From a candidate division FCPU426 bacterium (lineage in GTDB: Bacteria > Oederibacteriota > JAAXVQ01 > JAUVAV01), in contig DAOWGI010000035.1 of assembly GCA_030637655.1 (NCBI GenBank), positions 1 through 12,693 on the forward strand: a stretch of 12,693 nucleotides of DNA, given 5' to 3'. A program made the position numbers and the translations under genes. Below, in pieces: positions 1 to 12,670 of the stretch. The notes beneath the pieces are model-generated. The model was not told where the DNA came from and did no database searches. It saw only the letters and a list, made by a program, of their open reading frames with translations. How positions within the stretch are numbered: the first letter of the stretch is position 1; every line of letters begins with the position of its first letter.

Positions 1-50
1 TGATTGTAGCCGGGGTCCAGGTACCTTTGATTTTGTTTATAAAATCAATA

Positions 51-79
51 GATTCCGGCTGGAATCATGCCGGAATGAC
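51..79. repeat. Half of a GTCATTCC...GGAATGAC-type palindromic repeat (GATTCCGGC-tggaatcat-GCCGGAATGAC)
   Basis: 8-bp stem ATTCCGGC/GCCGGAAT ending in GAC; same architecture as the right half of the element at 10416-10491. Confidence 0.6.
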
Positions 80-153
80 GATGCTGTAATGACGATAGAA
101 GTACCTACCGTTAATAGAAAGGATGTCTGATTTACCCACACAAAACCCGGAAG

Positions 154-258
154 AGCCTTAAGTTTTTCTATGGCCTGTTGGCTACCGAGCAAAACTCCGC
201 AACGTAGCGAATCCCATAGATTGTCCAAACACACTAACCAGCTTTGCTTCCCACTTGC
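154..258 (-). pseudogene. Possible remnant of a REP-associated (Y1/HUH) tyrosine transposase C-terminal region
   Basis: Translation DNLWDSLRCGVLLGSQQAIEKLKA resembles the 'PW..L.....LGS..F.E..' segment of RAYT-like proteins; recognition by eye only, no start or HUH motif. Confidence 0.25.
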
Positions 259-274
259 AGGAATCTATATTCTA

Positions 275-303
275 TGGCAATATAAATCCTCTATTAATAT
301 AAT
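275..303 (+). promoter_or_regulatory. Putative sigma70 promoter of cupin copy 1 (identical copy at 2400-2428)
   Basis: TGGCAA-17 bp-TATAAT, then AGGA RBS before ATG 320. Confidence 0.5.
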
Positions 304-319
304 TAGGAACAAATAACAT

Positions 320-823
320 ATGAAAGACGCACTGTATTGGATAAACAAGTTGGACTTACAACCTCATCCGGAAGGCGGTTATTACCGGGAAACCTTTCGC
401 GCCCGGGAAATCATTCCTGAAGCAGGTCTGCCGCCCCGTTTCCAAGGCCCGCACAACATGTCTACGGCCATTTATTATTTGCTGGAAAAAACCGATTGCT
501 CTCATTTCCACCGCATACAGGCAGACGAAGTCTGGCATTTTTATACAGGCAGTTCCCTGTGTCTACATGTTTTTAATCCGCTCAAATTTTATTCTTGCAT
601 CCGTCTGGGTTCCCAACCCGAAGCCGGTGATGTGTACCAAACTGTGATTCCGGCCGGTTCCTGGTTTGCAGCTCACTTGCTGGATACTGAAGAATTTGCT
701 CTGGTGGGCTGTACGGTAGCGCCAGGATTTGAATTTCGCGACTTTGAATTGGGTCAACAACAGGATTTGATTCAACAATTCCCCGATCACCGCGAACTGA
801 TCGAAAAACTCACCCAATCGTAA
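320..823 (+). CDS. Cupin domain protein, DUF985/Cupin_5 family, copy 1
   Basis: Motifs LQPHPEGGYYRET, TAIYYLL, SHFHRI.ADEVWHFY.G, LVGCTVAPGFEF. Confidence 0.93.
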   Translation: MKDALYWINKLDLQPHPEGGYYRETFRAREIIPEAGLPPRFQGPHNMSTAIYYLLEKTDCSHFHRIQADEVWHFYTGSSLCLHVFNPLKFYSCIRLGSQPEAGDVYQTVIPAGSWFAAHLLDTEEFALVGCTVAPGFEFRDFELGQQQDLIQQFPDHRELIEKLTQS

Positions 824-833
824 AACCATTTAT

Positions 834-861
834 CACCGCCGAGACGCAGAGGACGCAGAGA
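834..861 (+). repeat. CACCGCCGAG-ACGCAGAG-G-ACGCAGAG short tandem repeat after the cupin stop (second copy 2959-2986)
   Basis: Repeated ACGCAGAG units seen directly in the sequence. Confidence 0.6.
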
Positions 862-913
862 AACTATCGGTCCCCTCGCCCACCAAAACAAATCGAAAAC
901 ACACGGAGTCACA

Positions 914-2062
914 TCATAAACGAATAAACCATTTTTTATGATATAGCACATATAACAGACCAAACCAAATCAAAGTATAGGATAATGCATAAAGCAAAGA
1001 ATTAAGATGCATATAGGGTGTGAGCGGCTGAAAGCAGGTTTGAAAAATCCAGGCTTTTAAGGAAACCCCGGTTGTGAGTTTAATCCTTACTAAACACTTG
1101 GCCGTAAAAGAACTGAGAAAATAGGCAAGAATAGCATTAGTACCAAAGATCTGAAAAGGCTTCATAAAAGCAGACCAGGTTTTTACATCCGCATACCAAT
1201 AGATTCCACTGAAAATAATTAATGCTAATCCTGAACTTACCAAAACATAAGAACTGCTCCAGAGGGATTTATTGATTGGGAAAAACGGCGAAATACTATA
1301 ACCTAAAATCAGCATCCCGGTTCCAACCAACACCATTCCCAAAAGTTTTCGCCGTGTTGAAATGGTTTTTTGTAGCCACCAGCAACATATAATTCCGGAT
1401 AAGGTAGTAGCCAAAGCCGAAATAGTACTGAAAAGTCCTTCAGGATCCCACCGGTATTTTGCATAAGCCCATAAGTGGCCATTCATTATCAGACGATCAA
1501 TATAAGCAGCTAGATTATTTTCCTTGGAATTTAATAATCCTGCGCCCTGGCCGGGAACAGGTACGTATTTCATACAAATAAAATAAATTGTCAATAAAGC
1601 GAAAAACAGAAAACCTAAAGTTAAAACAGATGAATTATTTTGCTCATTGTTTTTTTTATGACAAGCCAAGTAAATAAAAGAAGCTAAACCATAGCAAAGA
1701 CCAATTCGCTGCAATACACCCGGGAAGCGCAGGTGATCTCCTTTAAAAGGAAAGCCGTTCAAGACCAGGCCCAGGAGAATTAATAAAAACATTCTTCGTA
1801 AAATTCGCCAGGACACAGTAGCCAGGGAAGTTTGCTGAATGAGCCGGGGATTGAGCGATAAAGGGATGGCCATACCCACAATGAATAAAAAGAAAGGGAA
1901 GATTAAATCAGTAGGAGTCAAGCCCTGCCAGACTGCATGCCGCAAGGGGGCAAATATATGTTTGTAGGTCCCAGGATTGTTGACTATCAGCATGGCAGCT
2001 ATAGTTAAACCGCGAAAAACATCAAGAGAAATGATGCGTGACTTGACAGTAAGTTTGTCCAT
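914..2062 (-). CDS. Membrane acyltransferase, heparan-alpha-glucosaminide N-acetyltransferase-like (NagX / DUF1624 / DUF5009)
   Basis: RIISLDVFRGLTIAAM..VN, HA.W.GLTPTDLIFPFFLFIVG, GVLQRI, DPEG, PINKSLWSSSYVL; many hydrophobic segments. Confidence 0.9.
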   Translation of the reverse strand: MDKLTVKSRIISLDVFRGLTIAAMLIVNNPGTYKHIFAPLRHAVWQGLTPTDLIFPFFLFIVGMAIPLSLNPRLIQQTSLATVSWRILRRMFLLILLGLVLNGFPFKGDHLRFPGVLQRIGLCYGLASFIYLACHKKNNEQNNSSVLTLGFLFFALLTIYFICMKYVPVPGQGAGLLNSKENNLAAYIDRLIMNGHLWAYAKYRWDPEGLFSTISALATTLSGIICCWWLQKTISTRRKLLGMVLVGTGMLILGYSISPFFPINKSLWSSSYVLVSSGLALIIFSGIYWYADVKTWSAFMKPFQIFGTNAILAYFLSSFTAKCLVRIKLTTGVSLKAWIFQTCFQPLTPYMHLNSLLYALSYTLIWFGLLYVLYHKKWFIRL

Positions 2063-2170
2063 AGTTACCTTAATATAGTGAGTATTAATTCTCAGTAGTT
2101 ATAAACCCGTAGTCTATCAATTATAGCACCAACCTGACTGTTAGGTCGCGAAACATTTGAACCGTAAACT

Positions 2171-2197
2171 GGGCAAAGGTGGTTGGCACCTTTGCCC
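2171..2197. repeat. REP-like palindrome GGGCAAAGGTG-GTTGG-CACCTTTGCCC
   Basis: 11-bp perfect stem; 24 bp identical to 6037-6060. Confidence 0.9.
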
Positions 2198-2319
2198 TAA
2201 GTTAAGCCTGACCCCAACACATTGACTGTTCGTCAAAGCATCACTGGCGCTGGATAGAAATGATAGAAAAAATGATTGGAAAAACCGATGTCGTTTTTTG
2301 GAAATCAACTATAGATAAA

Positions 2320-2347
2320 GTAGGGAACGGTCGCGACCGTTCCCTAC
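2320..2347. repeat. GTAG-type REP palindrome GTAGGGAACGGTCGCGACCGTTCCCTAC
   Basis: Perfect 28-bp palindrome with GTAG/CTAC ends. Confidence 0.9.
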
Positions 2348-2377
2348 AATTTCAATCCCAATCCCAGGTTTATTCTG

Positions 2378-2996
2378 ACTTGTGGTAATCTATATTCTAT
2401 GGCAATATAAATCCTCTATTAATATAATTAGGAACAAATAACATATGAAAGACGCGCTGTATTGGATAAACAAGTTGAACTTACAACCTCATCCGGAAGG
2501 CAGTTATTACCGGGAAACCTTTCGTGCCCGGGAAATCATTCCTGAAGCTGGTCTGCCGCCCCGTTTCCAAGGCCCGCACAACATGTCCACGGCCATTTAT
2601 TATTTGCTGGAAAAAACCGATTGCTCGCATTTCCACCGCATCCGGGCAGACGAAGTCTGGCATTTTTATACAGGCAGTTCCCTGTGTCTACATGTTTTTA
2701 ATCCGCTCAAATTTTATTCCTACATCCGTCTGGGTTCCCGACCCGAAGCCGGTGATGTCTTCCAAACCGTGATTCCGGCCGGTTCCTGGTTTGCAGCTCA
2801 CTTGCTGGATACTGAAGAATTTGCCCTGGTGGGTTGTACGGTAGCGCCGGGATTTGAATTTCGCGACTTCGAATTAGGTCAACAACAGGATTTGATTCAA
2901 CAATTCCCCGATCATCGAGAATTAATTAAAAAACTTACCCAATCGTAAAACCATTTATCACCGCCGAGACGCTGAGAACGCAGAGAAAATATAGGT
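2378..2996 (+). repeat. Direct repeat copy 2 of 253-871
   Basis: Gap-free alignment at offset 2125 with scattered substitutions. Confidence 0.97.
2445..2948 (+). CDS. Cupin domain protein, DUF985/Cupin_5 family, copy 2
   Basis: 160/167 aa identical to copy 1; HPEGG changed to HPEGS. Confidence 0.92.
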   Translation: MKDALYWINKLNLQPHPEGSYYRETFRAREIIPEAGLPPRFQGPHNMSTAIYYLLEKTDCSHFHRIRADEVWHFYTGSSLCLHVFNPLKFYSYIRLGSRPEAGDVFQTVIPAGSWFAAHLLDTEEFALVGCTVAPGFEFRDFELGQQQDLIQQFPDHRELIKKLTQS

Positions 2997-3014
2997 TTAA
3001 AAGATAAAAATAAA

Positions 3015-3228
3015 GTAACTACTCAGGTCTGCAAGGAACAGGGCGCTTTGGTCTTTTTTCAAGCGTGGCAGCGGTAACTGCGGAGATGTGGTTTAGAAAA
3101 GCATATCCCCCTATTGCCCGTTACCAGCCTAGACCTTGGTTTTCCGCTTTGCAATGCTTGAAAAAAGACCAAAGTGACCTGCCAGGCGTGAATACTTGAA
3201 TACTTTTTTTACCCACTTGGGTAGTTAC
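3015..3228. mobile_element. MITE-like non-autonomous element, 214 bp
   Basis: Terminal inverted repeats GTAACTACTCAGG (3015-3027) / CTTGGGTAGTTAC (3216-3228), 11/13 match; flanked by the 8-bp direct repeat AAAATAAA (3007-3014 and 3229-3236); long internal inverted repeat; no transposase. Confidence 0.8.
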
Positions 3229-3317
3229 AAAATAAATGCATAAAAACAAACACACAATATAATGAATTTTATTGAATTCAAATGACAAATGAAGATGTGA
3301 CCCCATTTCCATTTCGT

Positions 3318-4778
3318 TTATGACAGTAATGAAGTCCCGCGCTTGCCTGCGTGGCGCAATACAACCTTGTACTCTTTGGCCATTTTCTCTATTTCCTTGA
3401 ACGAGGCATTTCGCGCCAGGCGCAGATTTTTTTGGGCCAGCTTATAATCCGGCTTCAGCTCCAAAGCCTTTTCCAAACACGGTATAGCCTGCTTGACATC
3501 CATCAGCAGCAGGTGCGCTATCGCAAGATTATGCCAAACCACATGGTTCCAAGGCGCCAATTCAAGATATTCCAAAAAAACCTCCGCCGCCTTTTGAGGC
3601 TTGCCATTCTGAAGATGCTCCAGACCTAAATAAAACAGTTTCTCTGCCTTGGCCTCGATTTCCGCGCCCGGTTCCAGGGGCGTCAGATTAACGCTAAACC
3701 CGACCCTTCTCTCGGGATTGCCAAGCTGCTCGCGCTCTTCAAGAATCGCTTTCAAAGGCGTTTTTCCACCAAACTCAGTCTTGGGTTCTGAAAACCACAT
3801 TTTTTGCAGCCGGTTTGCTTCCGCCTCTGCTTCAGCCAAATTGGGGAAATCCTCCGGCTTCACCTTCTGCATTACATAACTCATGCAAATCCTGATTAAG
3901 CTCACCTCAACCGGCCCCTTGGCAACATGGCCGGCTGACTCCTCGACCCATGAGTTCCACAGTTCAATAAAGGCGGCTTGCAGCCTGGAGAATATTTCGT
4001 CGTGTTGGGGCCGCAGGAGGATTTTTTTTACCAGGCCCGCGAAGGCCTGAGTGTGAGAGCCTTTGGCCGAGAAACTCTGCCGGGCTTCCTGGATCGTCTG
4101 GAGAATGTCTCCCCGCTTGGCTCCAGCTTCAAGGCCGAGTTTTATAAAATGCTGATCAGCCGTAATTTTTTTGGTTCCCCCAGCCTCAGCAATGAGCTTA
4201 ATCACATCCAGTATGGTCAGGTTCGGAGATGGACCAGTCTTGGTCGAAGTTTCCGGTTTCACATTGCCGGCAAGTTTGAGCATTGCCGTAGCCGCCGGGG
4301 GAAAGGAATACGACTTGCCGGTTAAGATAAAAAAATCCTGAAAGAGCAGGACCCGGAGGATGGCGCATTGTCCCTTGGCCAACCAGGCCGATGCTTGAGT
4401 GTCGAAAACAGAATACTCAATTCCGGTAAGCAAATCGTGGAGCAAGAGCTGCTTGCCGATCCGCACAGCCTTGACCTCGAAAATGCTGAATACACCGTTC
4501 AAGAATCCGTGATAGAGTCCCTTTTGTTCGGCTGAAAGATCGCCTTTTTCCAGAAAGTCCTCCAAGATCGATTGGCGTCCGGACTTCCGGCGGAAGTCGA
4601 AAATCAACCAATCCGTGAACATGGATTGCCTGTCTGCCTCATCCATGTCCAGACCCTTGAACAAGGCCGCGTTCTCCTCCACCACCTTTTGTATTTTTGG
4701 CCGGCGGCTTATAAATTCTTCCATTCCGGAATAAAATTCGCGCATTGCTGGTTGGTAAAACACGGCTTTATCATCCAT
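3318..4778 (-). CDS. Hypothetical multidomain protein with C-terminal TPR repeats (486 aa from MDDKAV)
   Basis: RBS AGAAAGGA before ATG 4778; TPR pattern (AEKLFYLG..HLQ.G...KA...F...LELAP..HVVWHNLA.A......KQAI..LEKALELKPDY..A..NL); W...P...FGGKTP motif resembling the Xre/MbcA/ParS-like C-terminal module; N-terminus resembles the domain found in SEC-C-associated proteins. Confidence 0.8.
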   Translation of the reverse strand: MDDKAVFYQPAMREFYSGMEEFISRRPKIQKVVEENAALFKGLDMDEADRQSMFTDWLIFDFRRKSGRQSILEDFLEKGDLSAEQKGLYHGFLNGVFSIFEVKAVRIGKQLLLHDLLTGIEYSVFDTQASAWLAKGQCAILRVLLFQDFFILTGKSYSFPPAATAMLKLAGNVKPETSTKTGPSPNLTILDVIKLIAEAGGTKKITADQHFIKLGLEAGAKRGDILQTIQEARQSFSAKGSHTQAFAGLVKKILLRPQHDEIFSRLQAAFIELWNSWVEESAGHVAKGPVEVSLIRICMSYVMQKVKPEDFPNLAEAEAEANRLQKMWFSEPKTEFGGKTPLKAILEEREQLGNPERRVGFSVNLTPLEPGAEIEAKAEKLFYLGLEHLQNGKPQKAAEVFLEYLELAPWNHVVWHNLAIAHLLLMDVKQAIPCLEKALELKPDYKLAQKNLRLARNASFKEIEKMAKEYKVVLRHAGKRGTSLLS

Positions 4779-4847
4779 AAAATTATCCTTTCTCCGCCCA
4801 GCCGTTGTCCTGACAGCACACCACGTGTATTCACCGGGCCAATGAGA

Positions 4848-4867
4848 ATTTGGTGCCAGCCACAAAT
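4848..4867 (-). repeat. REP-like site, inverted copy (ATTTGGTGCCAGCCACAAAT)
   Basis: Core GGTGCCAGCCAC is the exact reverse complement of GTGGCTGGCACC at 5663-5674. Confidence 0.7.
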
Positions 4868-5045
4868 GTGTGTGTGGGGGGGCGCACACATCATTATACT
4901 ATGGTATATGGTGGAGAGCACTGGGAATGTCTAAACGTGCTTGACGTGGCAGAGATGCCACTCTATAAATCTCGTGAAAGATCGTTAAGCATTGTGCATC
5001 GTATGAATCAATGTCCCCGTATTTTTCAGCGCTTTGTTAGAAAAT

Positions 5046-5285
5046 TTAGACGGATTGGCCTATTTCGTAAAGAAAATCTGGTGAAAAATCAGCATTATTG
5101 GGCCAAACAATAGTATCAATATCCTTGTTAAGGGTTACTGATTTAAAGTATAAGATATCTTTTAAAGGTTCAAAAATCCTTCCATCAAGATGGGGCTGTA
5201 AATCAACCAATTTATACTCATTATTCTCAAATTTTAATTTTAATTTATAACCTTCAATGTATGTTACATCAGTTATCCAATGCAT
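5046..5285 (-). CDS. DUF2442 domain protein, putative antitoxin
   Basis: ITDV.YIEGYKL.L.FEN.....VDL, G.IFEPLKD..YF..V, TIVWPN.ADF.PDFLYE; GGAGG RBS; follows the DUF4160 gene. Confidence 0.9.
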   Translation of the reverse strand: MHWITDVTYIEGYKLKLKFENNEYKLVDLQPHLDGRIFEPLKDILYFKSVTLNKDIDTIVWPNNADFSPDFLYEIGQSV

Positions 5286-5294
5286 GATGGCCTC

Positions 5295-5555
5295 CTAAAC
5301 TAAGGGATCAATTTTTTTAAGGTCTTCTTTTCTCTTAGCCAACTCCCAATCCTCAATTAATTCGCTTCTATGTTCAAATGCCCATTCCAAAATAAGAGAA
5401 ACTACTCTTTTGTGTAAGCTTCCTTCAATAAGTCTTAATTCATTTATAGAAAAAGCTGCTCTTTCTCCGCCATATTTAGCGTGAAAATGCGGTGGTGCAT
5501 GATCTTTGTAATACATTGAAATAACTATTCCTAAAAATCTACAAACTTCTGGCAT
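5295..5555 (-). CDS. DUF4160 domain protein, putative toxin
   Basis: MPEVCRFLGIVISMYY.DHAPPHFHA.YG...A.F.I, EWA.EH..EL..DW, KIDPL; AAGGAG RBS. Confidence 0.92.
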   Translation of the reverse strand: MPEVCRFLGIVISMYYKDHAPPHFHAKYGGERAAFSINELRLIEGSLHKRVVSLILEWAFEHRSELIEDWELAKRKEDLKKIDPLV

Positions 5556-5577
5556 TGTAACTCCTTTAGATTAACGA

Positions 5578-5594
5578 ACTGACTGACTGACTGA
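5578..5594. repeat. (ACTG)4 microsatellite in the toxin-antitoxin leader
   Basis: ACTGACTGACTGACTGA. Confidence 0.7.
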
Positions 5595-5612
5595 TAGGAA
5601 TTTAGTTTCCAG

Positions 5613-5645
5613 ATTAAGTATGCCATTACTGCTTAATTCCGTCAA
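5613..5645 (-). promoter_or_regulatory. Putative sigma70 promoter of the TA pair with an overlapping operator palindrome
   Basis: Minus strand TTGACG-17 bp-CATACT with TGn extension; inverted repeat ATTAAG(5613-5618)...CTTAAT(5632-5637). Confidence 0.6.
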
Positions 5646-5648
5646 TTT

Positions 5649-5879
5649 CTAAAGAGATAAAGGTGGCTGGCACCGCCCCCTCGCTGCTTCTTCACCACTT
5701 ATTAAAAAAGGCATCCGCAGATCCATGATGCATAAATCATAGCGCTCCCGGCCGACCTGTTCAAGAACCTCAAGGCCGTTTGAGACAATATCCAGATCCA
5801 GATCAACAAACCAGTTTTTTGCTAATAATTTGTAGACAATTTGAAGAGAAACTCTGTTTTCTGCCAAGAGAACGCGCAT
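5649..5879 (-). pseudogene. Truncated response-regulator receiver domain
   Basis: MRVLLAEN...LDIVSNGLEVLE....RYDLCIMDLRMP...GEEAAR; similarity stops after helix 3, at the REP-like site 5659-5674; beta4/beta5 with the conserved Thr and Lys are absent. Confidence 0.75.
5659..5674 (+). repeat. REP-like site AAAGGTGGCTGGCACC (right arm truncated)
   Basis: 15/16 match to the core of the 2171 and 6037 copies. Confidence 0.8.
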
Positions 5880-6036
5880 AATCTCCATCCCTTTGGAATC
5901 GGTTTGTTTTAAAACGGTTACATTCAAATCACAAGATGAATATATCGCTTAAAATACCTTTTTTTGAAATTAAGACAAACACAGTAATCTGTGCGGCATT
6001 TCTGTATTCCATTATTTTTTCAAAGCGTTAACCGCA

Positions 6037-6060
6037 GGCAAAGGTGGTTGGCACCTTTGC
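6037..6060. repeat. REP-like palindrome GGCAAAGGTGGTTGGCACCTTTGC
   Basis: Identical to 2172-2195; directly abuts the premature stop of the Fic fragment. Confidence 0.9.
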
Positions 6061-6435
6061 TCAAATATGGCCGCGCCCCAAACTATGCAGTTTCAAAACA
6101 GTTTTTTCTGAAATCGGGAGTCCCACCCCTTGTTCATGGATCAGAGACAGGGCTTGCCGGTAACCTTGAACTTCCTCCTCATCCCGGTCACGTAAAAGCG
6201 GCTTTCCAAAGATGACAGTAGCAATACGGGATTTGTCGATTTCCACGCCTTCAATCCGGTTGGAGGATACGGCACTTTCGATGAGGGCGTGTTCACGAAG
6301 TGCTTTGAGGCGTTGCGGGGCTTGTCGCGTGAACAATTCCTGTTTGCCCCGCGCCTCTCCAAGATCAGATAAATACCAGGATGTTGTTGCCGGAACGGTT
6401 TCGAACTTTCGAGCAAAGCATTGTATGGTCATCAT
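6061..6435 (-). pseudogene. Fic family protein, N-terminal fragment only
   Basis: LREHALIESAVSSNRIEGV (contains SxxxEG inhibitory motif), E.EVQGYRQAL..IHE, I.E..VLKLH; ends before the catalytic HPFxxGNGR motif. Confidence 0.82.
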
Positions 6436-6539
6436 AACGGGTCAGCTCCTGTTTCGTAATATGCCTCATCTTCCCGAACCAGCATTGGCCTGGTCATAGG
6501 CCAATAATGCGCCATATGGGTCATTTCATGCCATTTCAT
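6432..6539 (-). CDS. Possible 35-aa leader ORF coupled to the Fic gene
   Basis: MKWHEMTHMAHYWPMTRPMLVREDEAYYETGADPL*; its TGA overlaps the Fic ATG (ATGA); no clear RBS. Confidence 0.25.
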   Translation of the reverse strand: MKWHEMTHMAHYWPMTRPMLVREDEAYYETGADPL

Positions 6540-6653: not shown

Positions 6654-6686
6654 ATCAGTATGCAGCAGTGGCTGGTTTTAAAATTT

Positions 6687-7142
6687 TTATTCTTTCAGAC
6701 TTTCAGGTTTGGTTTCCAATTTGGCTTTGATGAAATCTTTGTGCTCCAGCCACAACAGGTTGCTAATTTTACGGATGGTTTCCACTTCCGAATGAGAAAG
6801 TTCATGATCCGCCCAGGCTACGGAAAACAAATCCCGCACCAATTGCACCCGCTCCGAATACTCGTATTCCTGATTGACTTCCCGAGTAAAGCCTTGCCAG
6901 TCCAAACGCTCCTCAATGGCCCGTTGGGAAGCTGCTAAAATTTCCTGTTGCTCCTCCGGAGTGGTATAGCCTTTCTTGGCCAATAGTGCCTTTTTGGTTT
7001 CTATTTCCTGCTCTGTAATTTTTCCATCAGCCTTAGATACCAGGGATAGCAGAGCGCCCAAAACAACACGGTAGGTCAATTCATGACCGGGTTTCTCTTG
7101 GCTTTGGCTAATCATCTGAGTAAAACGATCCAAAATTCCCAT
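6687..7142 (-). CDS. TerB family (tellurite resistance-like) protein
   Basis: ALL..VSKADGKITEQE, LFSVAWADHELSHSE...IRKI..LL; AAGGAG RBS. Confidence 0.85.
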   Translation of the reverse strand: MGILDRFTQMISQSQEKPGHELTYRVVLGALLSLVSKADGKITEQEIETKKALLAKKGYTTPEEQQEILAASQRAIEERLDWQGFTREVNQEYEYSERVQLVRDLFSVAWADHELSHSEVETIRKISNLLWLEHKDFIKAKLETKPESLKE

Positions 7143-7174
7143 CGTTTTTTAGCTCCTTCAAACATTATATTTAA

Positions 7175-7888
7175 TTACAGGTTACGCAGGCCAATCTCAC
7201 GCACATAGGGCCGGGCTATCTCCTGAAAACGCTCCAGCACTTCGCGCGGATAGGGCGGACGGCCATTCAAATCAGGATGGGTAACATGCGTGGGCAGATA
7301 TTGCTGCAGATAATAGGCAGGCGCTCCCTGAATTAATTTGGCAATGGCCAAAACATCCTGGTCCATGACCAAACCCGGAACACAAGTGGTGCGGAACTCA
7401 TATTCCAAATTAGAAGTGGACTTTAAAAAGGAAACGGTCTCTTGCAACTGCTCGGCAGCGTCCGCCGGCGCTTGCAAAGCCCGGGGATAGCGCTGCGGAG
7501 AAGTCTTCATATCCACTGCCACATAATCCACCAAATTCTCTTTGACCAATATCTTGAGGATATTGGCACGCATGCCATTGGTATCCAATTTGATAGTCAG
7601 ACCCGTCGTGCGGAGGCTGCGTAAAAGATAGGTCAATTGCGCATGAACTGTCGGCTCCCCACCGGTTACCACAATACCATCCAATAGTTTTCGGCGGCGC
7701 TTGATGGCCTCAATCAATTCGTCCAAACGGAGGTCTTCCAGTCCCTGATCTTCGCTCACCAATAGCGTATTATGGCAAAAAGGGCAGCGCAAGTTGCAGC
7801 CGCTTAGAAAAACCACGGCGGCAACCCGGCCCGGAAAATCAATTAGGGAAGTCCCTAAAAATCCCTTGATGCCCTGAATAATATTCAT
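7175..7888 (-). CDS. nrdG: Anaerobic ribonucleoside-triphosphate reductase activating protein (radical SAM)
   Basis: SLIDFPG..AAVVFL.GCNLRCPFCHN (CxxxCxxC), GIVVTGGEPT, KLDTNG, YEFRTT. Confidence 0.95.
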   Translation of the reverse strand: MNIIQGIKGFLGTSLIDFPGRVAAVVFLSGCNLRCPFCHNTLLVSEDQGLEDLRLDELIEAIKRRRKLLDGIVVTGGEPTVHAQLTYLLRSLRTTGLTIKLDTNGMRANILKILVKENLVDYVAVDMKTSPQRYPRALQAPADAAEQLQETVSFLKSTSNLEYEFRTTCVPGLVMDQDVLAIAKLIQGAPAYYLQQYLPTHVTHPDLNGRPPYPREVLERFQEIARPYVREIGLRNL

Positions 7889-8034
7889 TTGGTAACAGTC
7901 TCTTTGGTTGGCACTTCAAATTCAGTCCGATCTTTGAATTCTTCGCGTTTGCCTTTATTCCATTGCTGTACCGGCCGGAAATACCCGACCACACGGGAAT
8001 ACACCTCGGTTTTTTGCGTACATTTCTTTGACAT
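7885..8034 (-). CDS. 49-aa stand-alone glycyl-radical segment of class III RNR (separate NrdD C-terminus)
   Basis: My translation: MSKKCTQKTEVYSRVVGYFRPVQQWNKGKREEFKDRTEFEVPTKETVTK*; RVVGY glycyl-radical motif and WNKGK.EEF.DR; strong RBS AAAGGAGGT; stop overlaps the nrdG start (ATGA). Confidence 0.93.
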   Translation of the reverse strand: MSKKCTQKTEVYSRVVGYFRPVQQWNKGKREEFKDRTEFEVPTKETVTK

Positions 8035-8039
8035 GGATA

Positions 8040-10130
8040 TTACCTCCTTTCACTCGTTACAGGAGTGGGTGAAGTTTTGACTTGCTCTTTTTCCCGGGTT
8101 TGAATTTCTTTGACAGGCGGCTCCTCGTAAGCAACCCGGCCTTCTTCCTTCATATGCGGACACTCGTAATGCTCTCCGCGGATGTATCCATGCACCGGAC
8201 ATACGGAGAAGGTTGGCGAGATGGTAAAATACGGCAAATGATAATTTTCCGCAATACGCCGCACCAAATTGCGGCAAGCCATGGGATTATCAATACTCTC
8301 GCCCAGGAAAATATGTAAAACCGTGCCACCGGTATAACTGGCTTGTAATTCATCCTGATGCTCCAGGACCTCAAAAATATCAGTAGAGCCATCCACTGGA
8401 TATTGGGTGGAATTGGTATAATAGGGTTCATCCGTACCTGACGTCAGTATATCTGGAAATTCGCGCCGGTCCAAGCTGGCAAAGCGATACGAAGTCCCTT
8501 CTCCCGGTGTGGCTTCCAAGTTATAAAGATCACCATCCTCTTCCTGGTATTCCTGCAAACGCTTCCGCATAACGTGCAAGGTCTTGAGCGCTAAATCCCG
8601 GCCCTCATTACTGTCAATGCCTTTGCCAATTAGATTCCGCACAGCCTCGTGCATGCCGGAAAGACCGATGGTGGAAAAATGATTGGACCAGTATTGTCCG
8701 ATGCGCTGTTTGACTCCGGCTAAATAAAATTTGGAATAGGGGTATAGATTTTTCTCAGTATACCGCTCCACAATCTTGCGCTTGGTTTGCAGGCTCTCAC
8801 GAGCAAGGTCCATGAGATTGAGAATGCGGGAATGGAATTCATCCTCAGAGGTTGACAAATACGCTGCCCGGGACATATTCAAGGTCACCACACCCAGACT
8901 CCCGGTCAAAGGATTGGAGCCAAATAATCCGCCGCCGCGTTTGCGCAGTTCGCGATTATCCAAACGCAGACGGCAACACATGGAACGCGCGTCTTCCGGA
9001 TCCATATCACTGTTAATGAAATTGGCAAAATAGGGTATGCCGTATTTCGCGGTCATGGCAAAAATATCATTCACAATCGGCGCTTCCCAATTAAAATCAC
9101 GTGTCAGGTTGTAGGTAGGTATGGGGAAGGTAAAAATACGTCCGCGCGCGTCTCCTTGCATCATAACTTCACAAAAGGCCTTATTGAACATATCCATCTC
9201 ATTTTGGAACTCACCATAAGTACACTCTTGCAGCTCTCCGCCAATGATGACCGGTTCACATTTCATGCGTTCCGGTATCTGCAAATCCATGGTCACATTG
9301 GTAAACGGAGTTTGGAAACCGACCCGGGTAGGCACATTGATATTAAATATGAATTCCTGCATGCATTGCACCACTTCACGATAGCTGAGTTTATCGTACG
9401 CGATGAACGGCGCCAGGTAGGTATCAAAATTCGAAAACGCCTGAGCGCCGGCCGCCTCGCCCTGCAGGGTGAAAAAGAAATTGCAGATTTGTCCCAAAGC
9501 GGTCCGGAAATGGTTGGGTGGACCACTCTCGGTTTTTCCATAGGCACCTTGCAGTCCCTGCATAAACAGATCGCGCAGATCCCAACCGCAACAGTAGACC
9601 GAGAGAGAACCGAGGTCATGAATATGAAAATCACCGTTTAAGTGCGCGGCCCGGACGCGTTCGGAATGAATTTCCTCCAGCCAATATTGCGAAACCAAAA
9701 TGGCGGTAATATGATTATTCATCCCTTGCAAGGAATAGCTCATGTTGGAGTTTTCTTTAATACGCCAATCATTTTTTCCCAGATAATTATCAATAAGCTC
9801 ATTGGCCGATGAGAAGAGCTCTTGGGTATGGCGCAGTTTAGTGTGCTGGGCGCGATAGAGAATATATTGCTTGGAGACTTCTTTAAAACCCTGGTCCATC
9901 AAGGTGGTTTCAACGATGTCCTGGACATTTTCTACAGTTGGAATCTGATCTCCCTTGTAGATCGCGCGCAAGATGTTGTGGACTCGACGCGCAACATTTT
10001 GGGCTTGTTCAAGATCATGTTGACCAACAGCTGACATAGACCGGTACACTGCATTGACAATCTTCTGCTCATCAAAAAGAACTAATCGCCCATCCCTTTT
10101 CCTAATCTGGCCAATGCCCTGAATTTCCAT
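8040..10130 (-). CDS. nrdD: Class III ribonucleoside-triphosphate reductase large subunit with N-terminal ATP cone, lacking the glycyl-radical loop
   Basis: IRKRDGR...FD..KI ATP cone; HIHDL...YCCGW; SMCCRL finger loop; GS.GVVTLN; LEATPGEG; YTGGTVLH; CPVH...CPH; start moved to ATG 10130 after AGGGGG. Confidence 0.95.
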   Translation of the reverse strand: MEIQGIGQIRKRDGRLVLFDEQKIVNAVYRSMSAVGQHDLEQAQNVARRVHNILRAIYKGDQIPTVENVQDIVETTLMDQGFKEVSKQYILYRAQHTKLRHTQELFSSANELIDNYLGKNDWRIKENSNMSYSLQGMNNHITAILVSQYWLEEIHSERVRAAHLNGDFHIHDLGSLSVYCCGWDLRDLFMQGLQGAYGKTESGPPNHFRTALGQICNFFFTLQGEAAGAQAFSNFDTYLAPFIAYDKLSYREVVQCMQEFIFNINVPTRVGFQTPFTNVTMDLQIPERMKCEPVIIGGELQECTYGEFQNEMDMFNKAFCEVMMQGDARGRIFTFPIPTYNLTRDFNWEAPIVNDIFAMTAKYGIPYFANFINSDMDPEDARSMCCRLRLDNRELRKRGGGLFGSNPLTGSLGVVTLNMSRAAYLSTSEDEFHSRILNLMDLARESLQTKRKIVERYTEKNLYPYSKFYLAGVKQRIGQYWSNHFSTIGLSGMHEAVRNLIGKGIDSNEGRDLALKTLHVMRKRLQEYQEEDGDLYNLEATPGEGTSYRFASLDRREFPDILTSGTDEPYYTNSTQYPVDGSTDIFEVLEHQDELQASYTGGTVLHIFLGESIDNPMACRNLVRRIAENYHLPYFTISPTFSVCPVHGYIRGEHYECPHMKEEGRVAYEEPPVKEIQTREKEQVKTSPTPVTSERR

Positions 10131-10257
10131 AAAAAGAATGCCCCCCTGCAAGAATGGCTGAGATATACGGCCTCTGATTACGAGAAAAAAGGCCTTATTT
10201 CGTCAATTTTCAGTAGAAATAGTATAGAAATTGGTAAAACTGGGTTTTCTGCTAAGA

Positions 10258-10323: not shown

Positions 10324-10415
10324 TCGTATATTTTATTAATATTTTTCCTGTTTTTTTGCTCCCGACGGCAACAGCAATTTCGGTAAAATGTCAGTGAACT
10401 GCGGTTAAACAAAGG

Positions 10416-10491
10416 TTGTCATTCCCGAGGGTTTAATCGGGAATCTGGTTTTTTAAACCGTATCCCCGATACAAGCATTCGGGGATGACAA
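10416..10491. repeat. Double-hairpin palindromic repeat TTGTCATTCCCG...CGGGAATC...TATCCCCG...CGGGGATGACAA
   Basis: Terminal inverted repeat TTGTCATYCCCG with two internal hairpins; related to 51-79. Confidence 0.85.
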
Positions 10492-10577
10492 ACAAAAAAA
10501 CACATGACTGACATATTATCAATTTCGTGATTTTTCGCTTGCTTTTTTAAAAATTGCCACAGCGTACAGTCCTTGAG

Positions 10578-12583: not shown

Positions 12584-12604
12584 CAGACGCGATTAATCGC
12601 GTCT
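12583..12604. repeat. REP palindrome GCAGACGCGATTAATCGCGTCT
   Basis: Perfect palindrome core AGACGCGATTAATCGCGTCT; sister copy at 12644. Confidence 0.85.
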
Positions 12605-12643: not shown

Positions 12644-12670
12644 GTAGAGACGCGATTTATCGCGTCTCTG
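12644..12670. repeat. GTAG-type REP palindrome GTAGAGACGCGATTTATCGCGTCTCTG
   Basis: GTAG start and 11-bp stem; forms a REP doublet with 12583-12604. Confidence 0.85.

Follow-up and report, generated by a model that had tools for sequence, protein, structure and literature searches.

The window analysed here is a 12,693-nt stretch of DNA that makes up the entire contig C42 (DAOWGI010000035.1) in the genome of a candidate division FCPU426 bacterium (GCA_030637655.1, denoted G000). It carries four copies, termed A to D, of a short hairpin repeat that very probably belongs to a repetitive extragenic palindromic (REP) family tied to a REP-associated tyrosine transposase (RAYT) encoded on another contig (C87) of the same genome. 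All four copies lie within a variable stretch beside a terB-nrdG-nrdD backbone, and two genes are cut where they meet a copy. We consider it probable (about 0.6) that these features reflect an atypical REP/RAYT system in which the RAYT nicks and joins DNA at the sites, making them joints of rearrangement. The genome comprises 120 contigs (3.28 Mb, 45% G+C) and is 91.55% complete; its contigs are denoted by C, other genomes by G, and metagenome loci by L. The first-pass annotation of the window described a cassette-like gene array delimited by one family of REP-like sites, an observation that is partly confirmed as a whole, and its first interpretation is partly supported.

In its full form the repeat is a 19-25 nt hairpin, AAAGGTG-GYTGG-CACCTTT(GC), with the core GTGG(C/T)TGGCACC or its variant GTGCCTGGCACC. 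The 16-mer AAAGGTGGYTGGCACC occurs exactly on the + strand at positions 2175, 5659, and 6040, and the 12-mer core occurs inverted at 4852-4863. Copies A (2171-2197, core 2179-2190) and D (6038-6060, core 6044-6055) are full hairpins on the + strand. The stem of A comprises 11 bp, running 8 bp past GTG/CAC, with the loop GTTGG and a DNA fold of -14.8 kcal/mol, and that of D comprises 9 bp (-10.1 kcal/mol). Positions 2172-2195 match 6037-6060 exactly over 24 nt, and A and D are direct repeats 3865 bp apart. Copy B (4848-4867, core 4852-4863) lies on the minus strand; its outer stem letters are flipped (ATTT...AAAT), and inspection indicates that it still pairs through these flipped letters with one bulged C. 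Copy C (5659-5674, + strand) was defined by motif scan and by comparison with paralogs of the adjoining receiver gene, and it consists of the left arm and core, with the receiver stump in place of the 3' arm. Three of the four copies (A, C, and D) are thus co-oriented and B is inverted.

The letters quoted in the first-pass annotation are all present in the window where it placed them, and the long copies (12-24 bp) on which it laid most weight are genuine, with five matches to the 16-mer at no more than three mismatches versus 0.14 expected and none of 200 shuffled sequences reaching five. The fifth approximate match, at 3969 within a tetratricopeptide repeat (TPR) gene, is probably due to chance. 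The 7-mer TGNCMCC, proposed as the shared signal of the family, did not hold up: 11 copies were detected in the window versus 12.63 expected, and 11 was reached in 145 of 200 shuffles. Its proposed enrichment at gene 3' ends was likewise not observed in a genome-wide scan that adopted the annotation's geometry (up to 60 nt after the stops of 2404 open reading frames (ORFs) of at least 150 aa), with 38 copies versus 44.9 expected. Based on the window and genome-wide counts, the + strand 7-mers at 869-875, 2209-2215, 3298-3304, and 5012-5018 are chance occurrences and not family members. The distances of 38, 13, and 27 bp reported between such sites and the ends of the acyltransferase, TPR, and toxin-antitoxin units are correct, yet they depend on the 7-mer only. 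The minus-strand site proposed at 12-28 is also not a family member; it sits within another multi-copy repeat of ~80 nt (window 1-82 matches more than 10 contigs) and, by inspection, agrees with the 16-mer at 12 of 16 positions. Rather than delimiting gene 3' ends, the genuine copies are found upstream (5') of minus-strand gene blocks.

Across the genome, GTGG[CT]TGGCACC is present in 22 copies, and counts of its one-letter neighbors revealed the variants GTGCCTGGCACC (12 copies), GTGGCCGGCACC (6), and GTGGTTGGCACC (4). The motif GTGNNNGGCACC occurs 70 times versus 11 for its reversed control, with the excess residing in six variants. Five of these were kept as the family; GTGCAAGGCACC, whose three copies all fall within long ORFs, was left out. 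The consensus is a 13-nt near-palindrome, GGTG(G/C)C(T/A)GGCACC. Sites of the five main variants are predominantly extragenic, with 37 of 45 lying outside ORFs of at least 150 aa, which cover 84.4% of the genome (p = 8e-23). They cluster on C81 (six sites) and on C42, C68, and C109 (four each), and nine of the 45 are within 2 kb of contig ends versus 14.6% expected (p = 0.2). Sister genomes from the family and the order are also enriched (for example, 36 + 12 copies in G008 and 2 + 19 in G012, with reversed controls at 0-1 per strand per genome).

A search of the genome with PF01797 identified four Y1 genes, and the intact one is encoded on the minus strand of C87 (11622-12266; protein P0001). 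P0001 scores 84.6 bits against the NCBI RAYT model NF047646 (cut-off 80) and fails the IS200 model NF033573 (29.1 bits versus a cut-off of 55). Its best relative of solved structure is E. coli TnpA-REP (4er8; E = 0.005), and inspection of the protein reveals HFH at residues 60-62 and Tyr 120. Core copies are positioned 85 and 118 nt upstream of the gene and a variant 185 nt downstream, with GGCACC facing outward. Within the order, 15 RAYT copies were identified in 8 of 15 genomes, with up to four in G012. An inverted core is located 75-89 nt upstream in all 13 copies that have at least 150 nt of flank, and a direct core follows the gene by 21-209 nt in 10 of the 11 that have at least 300 nt. 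A composite repeat ending in a perfect 13-mer truncates a second RAYT copy of G000, on C49, near codon 75, and C81 retains only the RAYT gene leader. Tandem 11-nt units of the form GGCAC(C) plus 5 nt are found outside several RAYT-proximal sites. A search of genome contigs with the RAYT as query yielded a single close relative (68%).

The two main 12-mers are present in 11-48 copies in each of the eight RAYT-positive genomes and in 0-3 copies in 20 of the 23 RAYT-negative genomes. The bracketing of the RAYT gene by core copies, together with this co-occurrence, strongly suggests that the repeat is the cognate of the C87 RAYT. The first-pass annotation's description of the long copies as REP-like is supported, and its proposal of a HUH/REP-associated transposase acting in trans finds its best candidate in the C87 gene, which is bracketed by the same core.

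The same hairpin was also detected in metagenomes. The exact 21-mer AAAGGTGGYTGGCACCTTTGC is present in 85 metagenome loci, 84 of which have a GC content of 0.53-0.71, indicating that these loci derive from other organisms. The 19-nt unit there has a 7-bp stem and the loop GCTGG, and the hairpin form is the rule. A second copy within 30 nt downstream is inverted in 63 of 83 scorable matches, direct in 18, and absent in two (a further 11 matches were too near a contig end for scoring). Four of the loci (three distinct) encode a Y1 RAYT, 23-26% identical to P0001, beside such doublets; in L144, doublets at 2-46 and 741-785 stand on both sides of the gene (103-714). The best match of the metagenome RAYT in G000 is P0001 (E = 1.6e-14). 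Collectively, the metagenome doublets and their RAYT indicate that window copies A and D represent the canonical unit of a REP family that forms REPIN-like doublets and has a RAYT of its own.

One joint is at D. The stump of a Fic gene (6061-6435, minus strand; weak Fic_N match in Pfam) comprises the first 124 codons of a 354-codon gene and is cut at D. Window 6062-6464 is 95% identical to C17:2762-3164, the homology beginning one base past the 3' foot of the hairpin, and 118 of the 124 stump residues are identical to residues 1-124 of the 354-residue C17 protein, the Fic domain of which spans residues 107-211. A contig of a sister genome, G001:C129, matches from the same base (6062) at 96% identity. 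On G001:C37, the left flank of D is conserved (87% identity) and the repeat is kept with one core change, with unrelated DNA straight after CACCTTTGC. At C, a response-regulator receiver gene (5649-5927, minus strand; Pfam Response_reg positions 7-59 of 111) is cut after residue 83 of the listed ORF, 4-7 nt from GGCACC. Residues 11-83 of the stump are matched by paralogs on C96 and C112, which read on in frames that stay open for 247 and 254 aa, with one TAA inside the C96 match; the stump showed no similarity to response regulators of G005 and G014. The truncation of both genes at a site, noted in the first-pass annotation, is thus upheld by comparison with paralogs. Near B, the TPR gene matches its G001 counterpart at 91% identity and similarity fades at ~4825-4846, beside the repeat, where G001 has a degenerate core. 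Elsewhere in the genome, the C49 RAYT unit ends in GGCACCAGTTC, followed by DNA that C81 carries after unrelated sequence, and on C68 a site lies 7 nt from the truncated 5' end of a HATPase_c_4 gene.

Further joints were identified in G014, which belongs to another family. Two contig-end loci of this genome have modules in common, 94-99% identical and permuted in order. A chimeric junction has its crossover inside the core, and two more junctions fall directly after GGCACCTTTCG. At one locus, two direct site copies flank a segment of 1465 nt that contains a single 442-codon gene, and the other locus lacks this segment. On G014:C11, nine sites occur within 6 kb between one- and two-gene modules, and in G014:C4 a RAYT gene adjoins the array. 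The sites there lie within units of 180-270 bp that are 85-98% alike. Clean cassette-like presence/absence was observed only in G014; among the relatives compared, none revealed presence/absence of an entire window segment with a site at each end, and inverted site pairs in G002:C11 and G003:C26 enclose no clear cargo gene.

The Fic, G001, receiver, C49, C68, and G014 joints and the tandem 11-nt units together place the joint at the hairpin's 3' foot, ~5 nt 3' of GGCACC. Sites coincide with breakpoints, as the first-pass annotation anticipated, at the Fic and receiver cuts and where G001 homology ends at D and near B; at B the coincidence is only approximate. The proposed integron-like capture array is a less likely possibility: segment presence/absence in G014 speaks for it, but no integron integrase above cut-off and no window segment that is present or absent as a whole was detected.

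The repeat family, its link to a RAYT gene, and the positions of the joints are direct observations, and from them we infer a mechanism by analogy with E. coli TnpA-REP. As described in parts of PMC3479197, bases at the hairpin foot determine where that enzyme nicks REP DNA in its single-stranded form, and it can transfer strands. By this analogy, the RAYT would recognize the core or the hairpin and nick single-stranded DNA at the 3' hairpin foot, ~5 nt beyond GGCACC. The nicked end would then be joined to other DNA by strand transfer, and accessory gene blocks beside a repeat copy could in this way be inserted, lost, or swapped. Under this scheme, exchange of the DNA 3' of the repeat would have left the Fic gene cut after codon 124 and the receiver gene after codon 83. 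The agency of the RAYT, the exact nick position, and the single-strand mechanism are the conditional parts of this proposal, and we judge the odds that the RAYT itself makes the joints to be even.

Several features weigh against an active REP/RAYT system of this kind. A stable extended hairpin was predicted at just two of 48 scored sites in G000 (A and D), the other 46 extending by no more than 2 bp, and AAGGTG-N5-CACCTT was found nowhere else in G000 beyond A and D. The flanks of the window copies are unlike those of the RAYT-proximal copies on C87, and, by inspection, the repeat has no separate 5' GT[AG]G foot as in typical REPs, its foot being AAAG or variable and GTGG lying in the stem and loop. 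The joint at B is approximate only, and none was demonstrated at A. The same stretch also harbors an insertion sequence (IS) stub, an IS66-type miniature inverted-repeat transposable element (MITE), and a GTAG REP, any of which is a possible cause of deletion. Sites between same-direction genes are mostly antiparallel in G000 (17 versus 5) and parallel in the G014 arrays. Both G014 loci end contigs in a genome that is 5% contaminated, and they are perhaps strain variants rather than paralogous loci. Furthermore, G003 (12 copies), G005 (16), and G009 (8) carry the 12-mers with no detected RAYT ortholog, and the related genomes in the comparison do not count as independent samples. When contigs from four public runs were aligned to the window, no listed joint linked two sites, though contigs drop rare forms and are uninformative on excision; one X1 contig covers 3165-6155 with no differences, and X1 may be the source sample.

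REP sequences have long been observed as rearrangement endpoints, and the copies might accordingly be passive residents of a flexible island in which breaks arise from IS or MITE activity or from illegitimate recombination or RecA-dependent exchange between longer repeat units, the RAYT being uninvolved. The co-occurrence of the IS stub (2250-2325), the 214-247 bp MITE, and the GTAG REP in the same stretch is consistent with this explanation, as is the length of the G014 units, which at 180-270 bp and 85-98% similarity would suffice for homologous recombination. However, the window repeats measure only 16-27 nt, yet Fic is joined no more than 1 nt from the hairpin foot and the receiver 4-7 nt from the core; the G014 crossovers fall inside or directly after the core and not anywhere across the unit; and the C49 RAYT unit ends at the same offset. 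These observations render passive residence improbable, though it retains a real share of the likelihood.

A stronger version of RAYT involvement, which we regard as about equally improbable, is that the RAYT and the hairpin repeat form a HUH-based cassette shuffler in which strand transfer between site copies excises, inserts, and permutes one-site gene blocks. If so, such a shuffler would build accessory and defense arrays (the window, C68, G014:C11, and G014:C4) in an integron-like manner through single-strand HUH chemistry, and it would represent a concrete genomic activity for RAYTs.

Slightly less likely still is a dedicated integron-like capture system, in which one-site cassettes are cut as single-stranded circles between co-oriented sites and inserted at another. 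The co-orientation of A, C, and D and the 24-nt identity of A and D fit this scheme, as do four co-oriented sites on C68 between restriction-modification, toxin-antitoxin, RhuM, and Fic modules, the nine G014:C11 sites between small gene modules, and, in G014, the 442-codon gene that is present or absent between sites, the permuted modules, and the RAYT gene adjoining the C4 array. It is opposed by the lack, among relatives, of any window segment present or absent as a whole; by modules that contain truncated genes, an IS stub, and a MITE rather than tidy cassettes; by the inverted orientation of B; by the location of the G000 RAYT on another contig that has no array; by a DUF4160/DUF2442 pair after terB in G002 with no site nearby; and by a genome without an integron integrase above cut-off.

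Finally, a regulatory operator or a transcript-end hairpin with no role in rearrangement is highly improbable: the sites are extragenic and the upstream site 75-89 nt from the RAYT start would fit autoregulation, but inspection reveals no T-run after the hairpins, most copies lack a stable hairpin, genes are cut at sites, REPIN-like doublets flank RAYT genes in unrelated organisms, and no Rfam family matches. Three candidate readings of the motif were likewise rejected, namely an intrinsic terminator (the hairpins have no downstream T-run), a sigma-54 promoter reading of TGGCAC (the GG-to-GC spacing is wrong in most copies, by inspection), and a coding N-terminus 'KKWLAPV' (inspection showed that the flanks are unconserved and that several copies have in-frame stops or no start).

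The inverted core pair formed by B and C (4852-5674, GGCACC outward) encloses two minus-strand Pfam-defined genes, DUF2442 (5046-5285) and DUF4160 (5295-5555). The geometry and gene polarity of this unit are those of the RAYT unit, and its sequence similarity to the C87 unit is limited to the core. By analogy with the REPtron replacements described in PMC6006769, it may tentatively be viewed as a RAYT-unit layout with DUF4160/DUF2442 in place of the RAYT, which we think doubtful. The pair was also considered as a mobile cassette and rejected, the sole other DUF4160 in G000 (C30:78164) being far from any site. A DUF4160/DUF2442 pair also stands beyond terB in G002 (C12:2161-3940), a member of another genus, with no site nearby and only 41% and 27% identity to the window pair. 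This suggests that such pairs reached the spot after terB repeatedly.

The remaining window genes were assigned with Pfam and include two cupin_5 genes (320-823 and 2445-2948, + strand), a DUF5009-like acyltransferase (914-2062, minus strand), the TPR gene (3318-4889, minus strand), and TerB, NrdG, and NrdD (6687-10151, minus strand). The terB-nrdG-nrdD DNA, which borders the variable stretch, is matched in all 10 other genomes of the family. The DNA beyond terB varies by genome, comprising a cupin_5 gene and a two-component pair in G005 and the DUF4160/DUF2442 pair in G002, and this difference in content suggests that the window stretch is a flexible spot. No Rfam matches and no tRNA genes were detected.

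Other repeats were noted in the window. The cupin_5 gene and its flanks form a 634-nt direct duplication (238-871 and 2364-2996; 94% identity) that encloses the acyltransferase gene and repeat A; only one cupin_5 gene is present near terB in G005. Window 1-157 is 99% identical to C91:18739-18895, and the ~80-nt repeat at 1-82 probably accounts for the contig end there. The IS stub to the right of repeat A (2250-2325) matches, at 83% identity, the 3' end of a transposase gene of the DDE_Tnp_1_6 type in G010:C140. A double-foot GTAG REP palindrome at 2311-2356 has more than 100 BLAST copies in the genome and represents a family separate from the hairpin repeat. The IS66-type MITE (2986-3234) has ~20 copies of 214-247 bp at 88-96% identity, and a MITE of ~140 bp at 10375-10535 has full or partial genome copies on the order of 100. 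The 20-nt palindromes at 12585-12604 and 12648-12667 (AGACGCGATTWATCGCGTCT) have many copies elsewhere and form tandem arrays at the start of C60, a contig that also has a Y1_Tnp match. At 6664-6677, ~10 nt past the terB stop, CAGTGGCTGGTTTT agrees with the first 10 letters of the C68-type site, lacks CACC, and is either a decayed repeat copy or a chance occurrence.

Elsewhere, a ~115-nt composite repeat consists of two GTAG-type REPs and a tail ending in the perfect 13-mer GGTGCCAGGCACC, with copies on C81 (1-113, 5110-5228, and 6905-7020) and C49 (447-560). The minus-strand accessory island at C68:1-18500 encodes HTH-M78, HigB-like, DUF3037, two RhuM, Hypoth_Ymh, and DUF6119 proteins, together with a restriction-modification methylase and ResIII, Fic, XRE, and RadC. 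Its four co-oriented sites belong to a 25-nt subfamily, and it ends at a second radical-SAM plus ATP-cone locus. At G008:C62:1-300, three 102-nt units stand in tandem. Each combines an A-rich tract with the 12-mer and a small hairpin that has a T-run, and the array may be small-RNA-like or MITE-like.

RAYT activity on REPs has been shown in vitro, as described in parts of PMC3479197, and in the sections of PMC6006769 and PMC5581495 that bear on it, REP mobilization is otherwise proposed from genome comparisons. A search of a paper library, which did not cover supplements, yielded no bacterial occurrence of the 12-mer core, its seven matches all being eukaryote-related by title. In searches made mostly at the level of paper listings, no account of RAYT/REP-bounded gene cassettes surfaced, although the tables of atypical repeats in PMC6006769 may bear on this point. 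What appears new is the link, in an uncultured phylum, between a non-GTAG repeat family and a clade of RAYTs, with the same hairpin accompanying a distant RAYT in high-GC organisms. The occurrence of several natural joints at one offset yields a predicted nick site and apparent strand-transfer products. If the joints are enzyme-made, RAYT/REP systems would shuffle accessory genes in flexible islands, beyond spreading small repeats.

Comparison with known systems helps to place these repeats. IS91 and ISCR elements have Y2 HUH enzymes, and the element carries its own gene beside captured DNA. They resemble the present system in using a HUH enzyme and in one-ended events that join unrelated flanks to a fixed element end. 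In the present case, by contrast, the window has no transposase gene, and a Y1 RAYT is the enzyme concerned.

Integrons (IntI and attC) share with the system potential hairpin sites between co-oriented accessory gene blocks and, in G014, a one-gene segment between direct site copies adjoining the enzyme gene. Unlike attC, however, the site is a simple 19-27 nt hairpin or a bare 12-mer, by inspection, and the blocks include gene stumps and mobile debris, with no attI or Pc identified. The best TIGR02249 match to an integron integrase reached 85.3 bits versus a cut-off of 265 in this 91.55% complete genome.

Members of the IS200/IS605 family such as IS608 and ISDra2 share the Y1 HUH chemistry, and parts of PMC3479197 describe element ends that are defined by hairpins, with the cut placed a few nucleotides away. 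The RAYT gene and its ends likewise form a unit of ~0.93-0.95 kb (from site spacings, by inspection) present in several copies, including the truncated one on C49. In contrast to IS200/IS605, the protein falls short of the IS200 model, the ends of the RAYT unit are inverted copies rather than same-strand end hairpins, and solo sites are far more numerous than genes.

The closest correspondence is with REPtrons, represented by E. coli TnpA-REP (4er8) and the REPIN-RAYT systems of Pseudomonas. Shared features are a HUH/Y1 protein that passes the NCBI RAYT model, a RAYT gene bracketed by inverted copies of a short repeat that is also dispersed, extragenic, and over-represented, a hairpin form at A and D and in the metagenome loci, and inverted doublets in the metagenome relatives. 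The system departs from typical REPtrons in that the conserved part is a 12-13 nt near-palindrome comprising the loop and inner stem, in that only ~45 copies are present and most lack a stable hairpin, and in that the RAYT is multi-copy (15 in eight genomes) rather than single-copy and vertically kept. It departs also in that the repeat copies cluster in accessory islands and abut cut genes, with joints at a fixed offset. The relevant sections of PMC6006769 also describe classes of RAYT whose structures are atypical and not of the GT[AG]G type, as well as E. coli strains in which a toxin-antitoxin operon takes the place of REPtron loci. Collectively, these comparisons place the system as REPtron-like, and not as an integron or a member of IS200/IS605.

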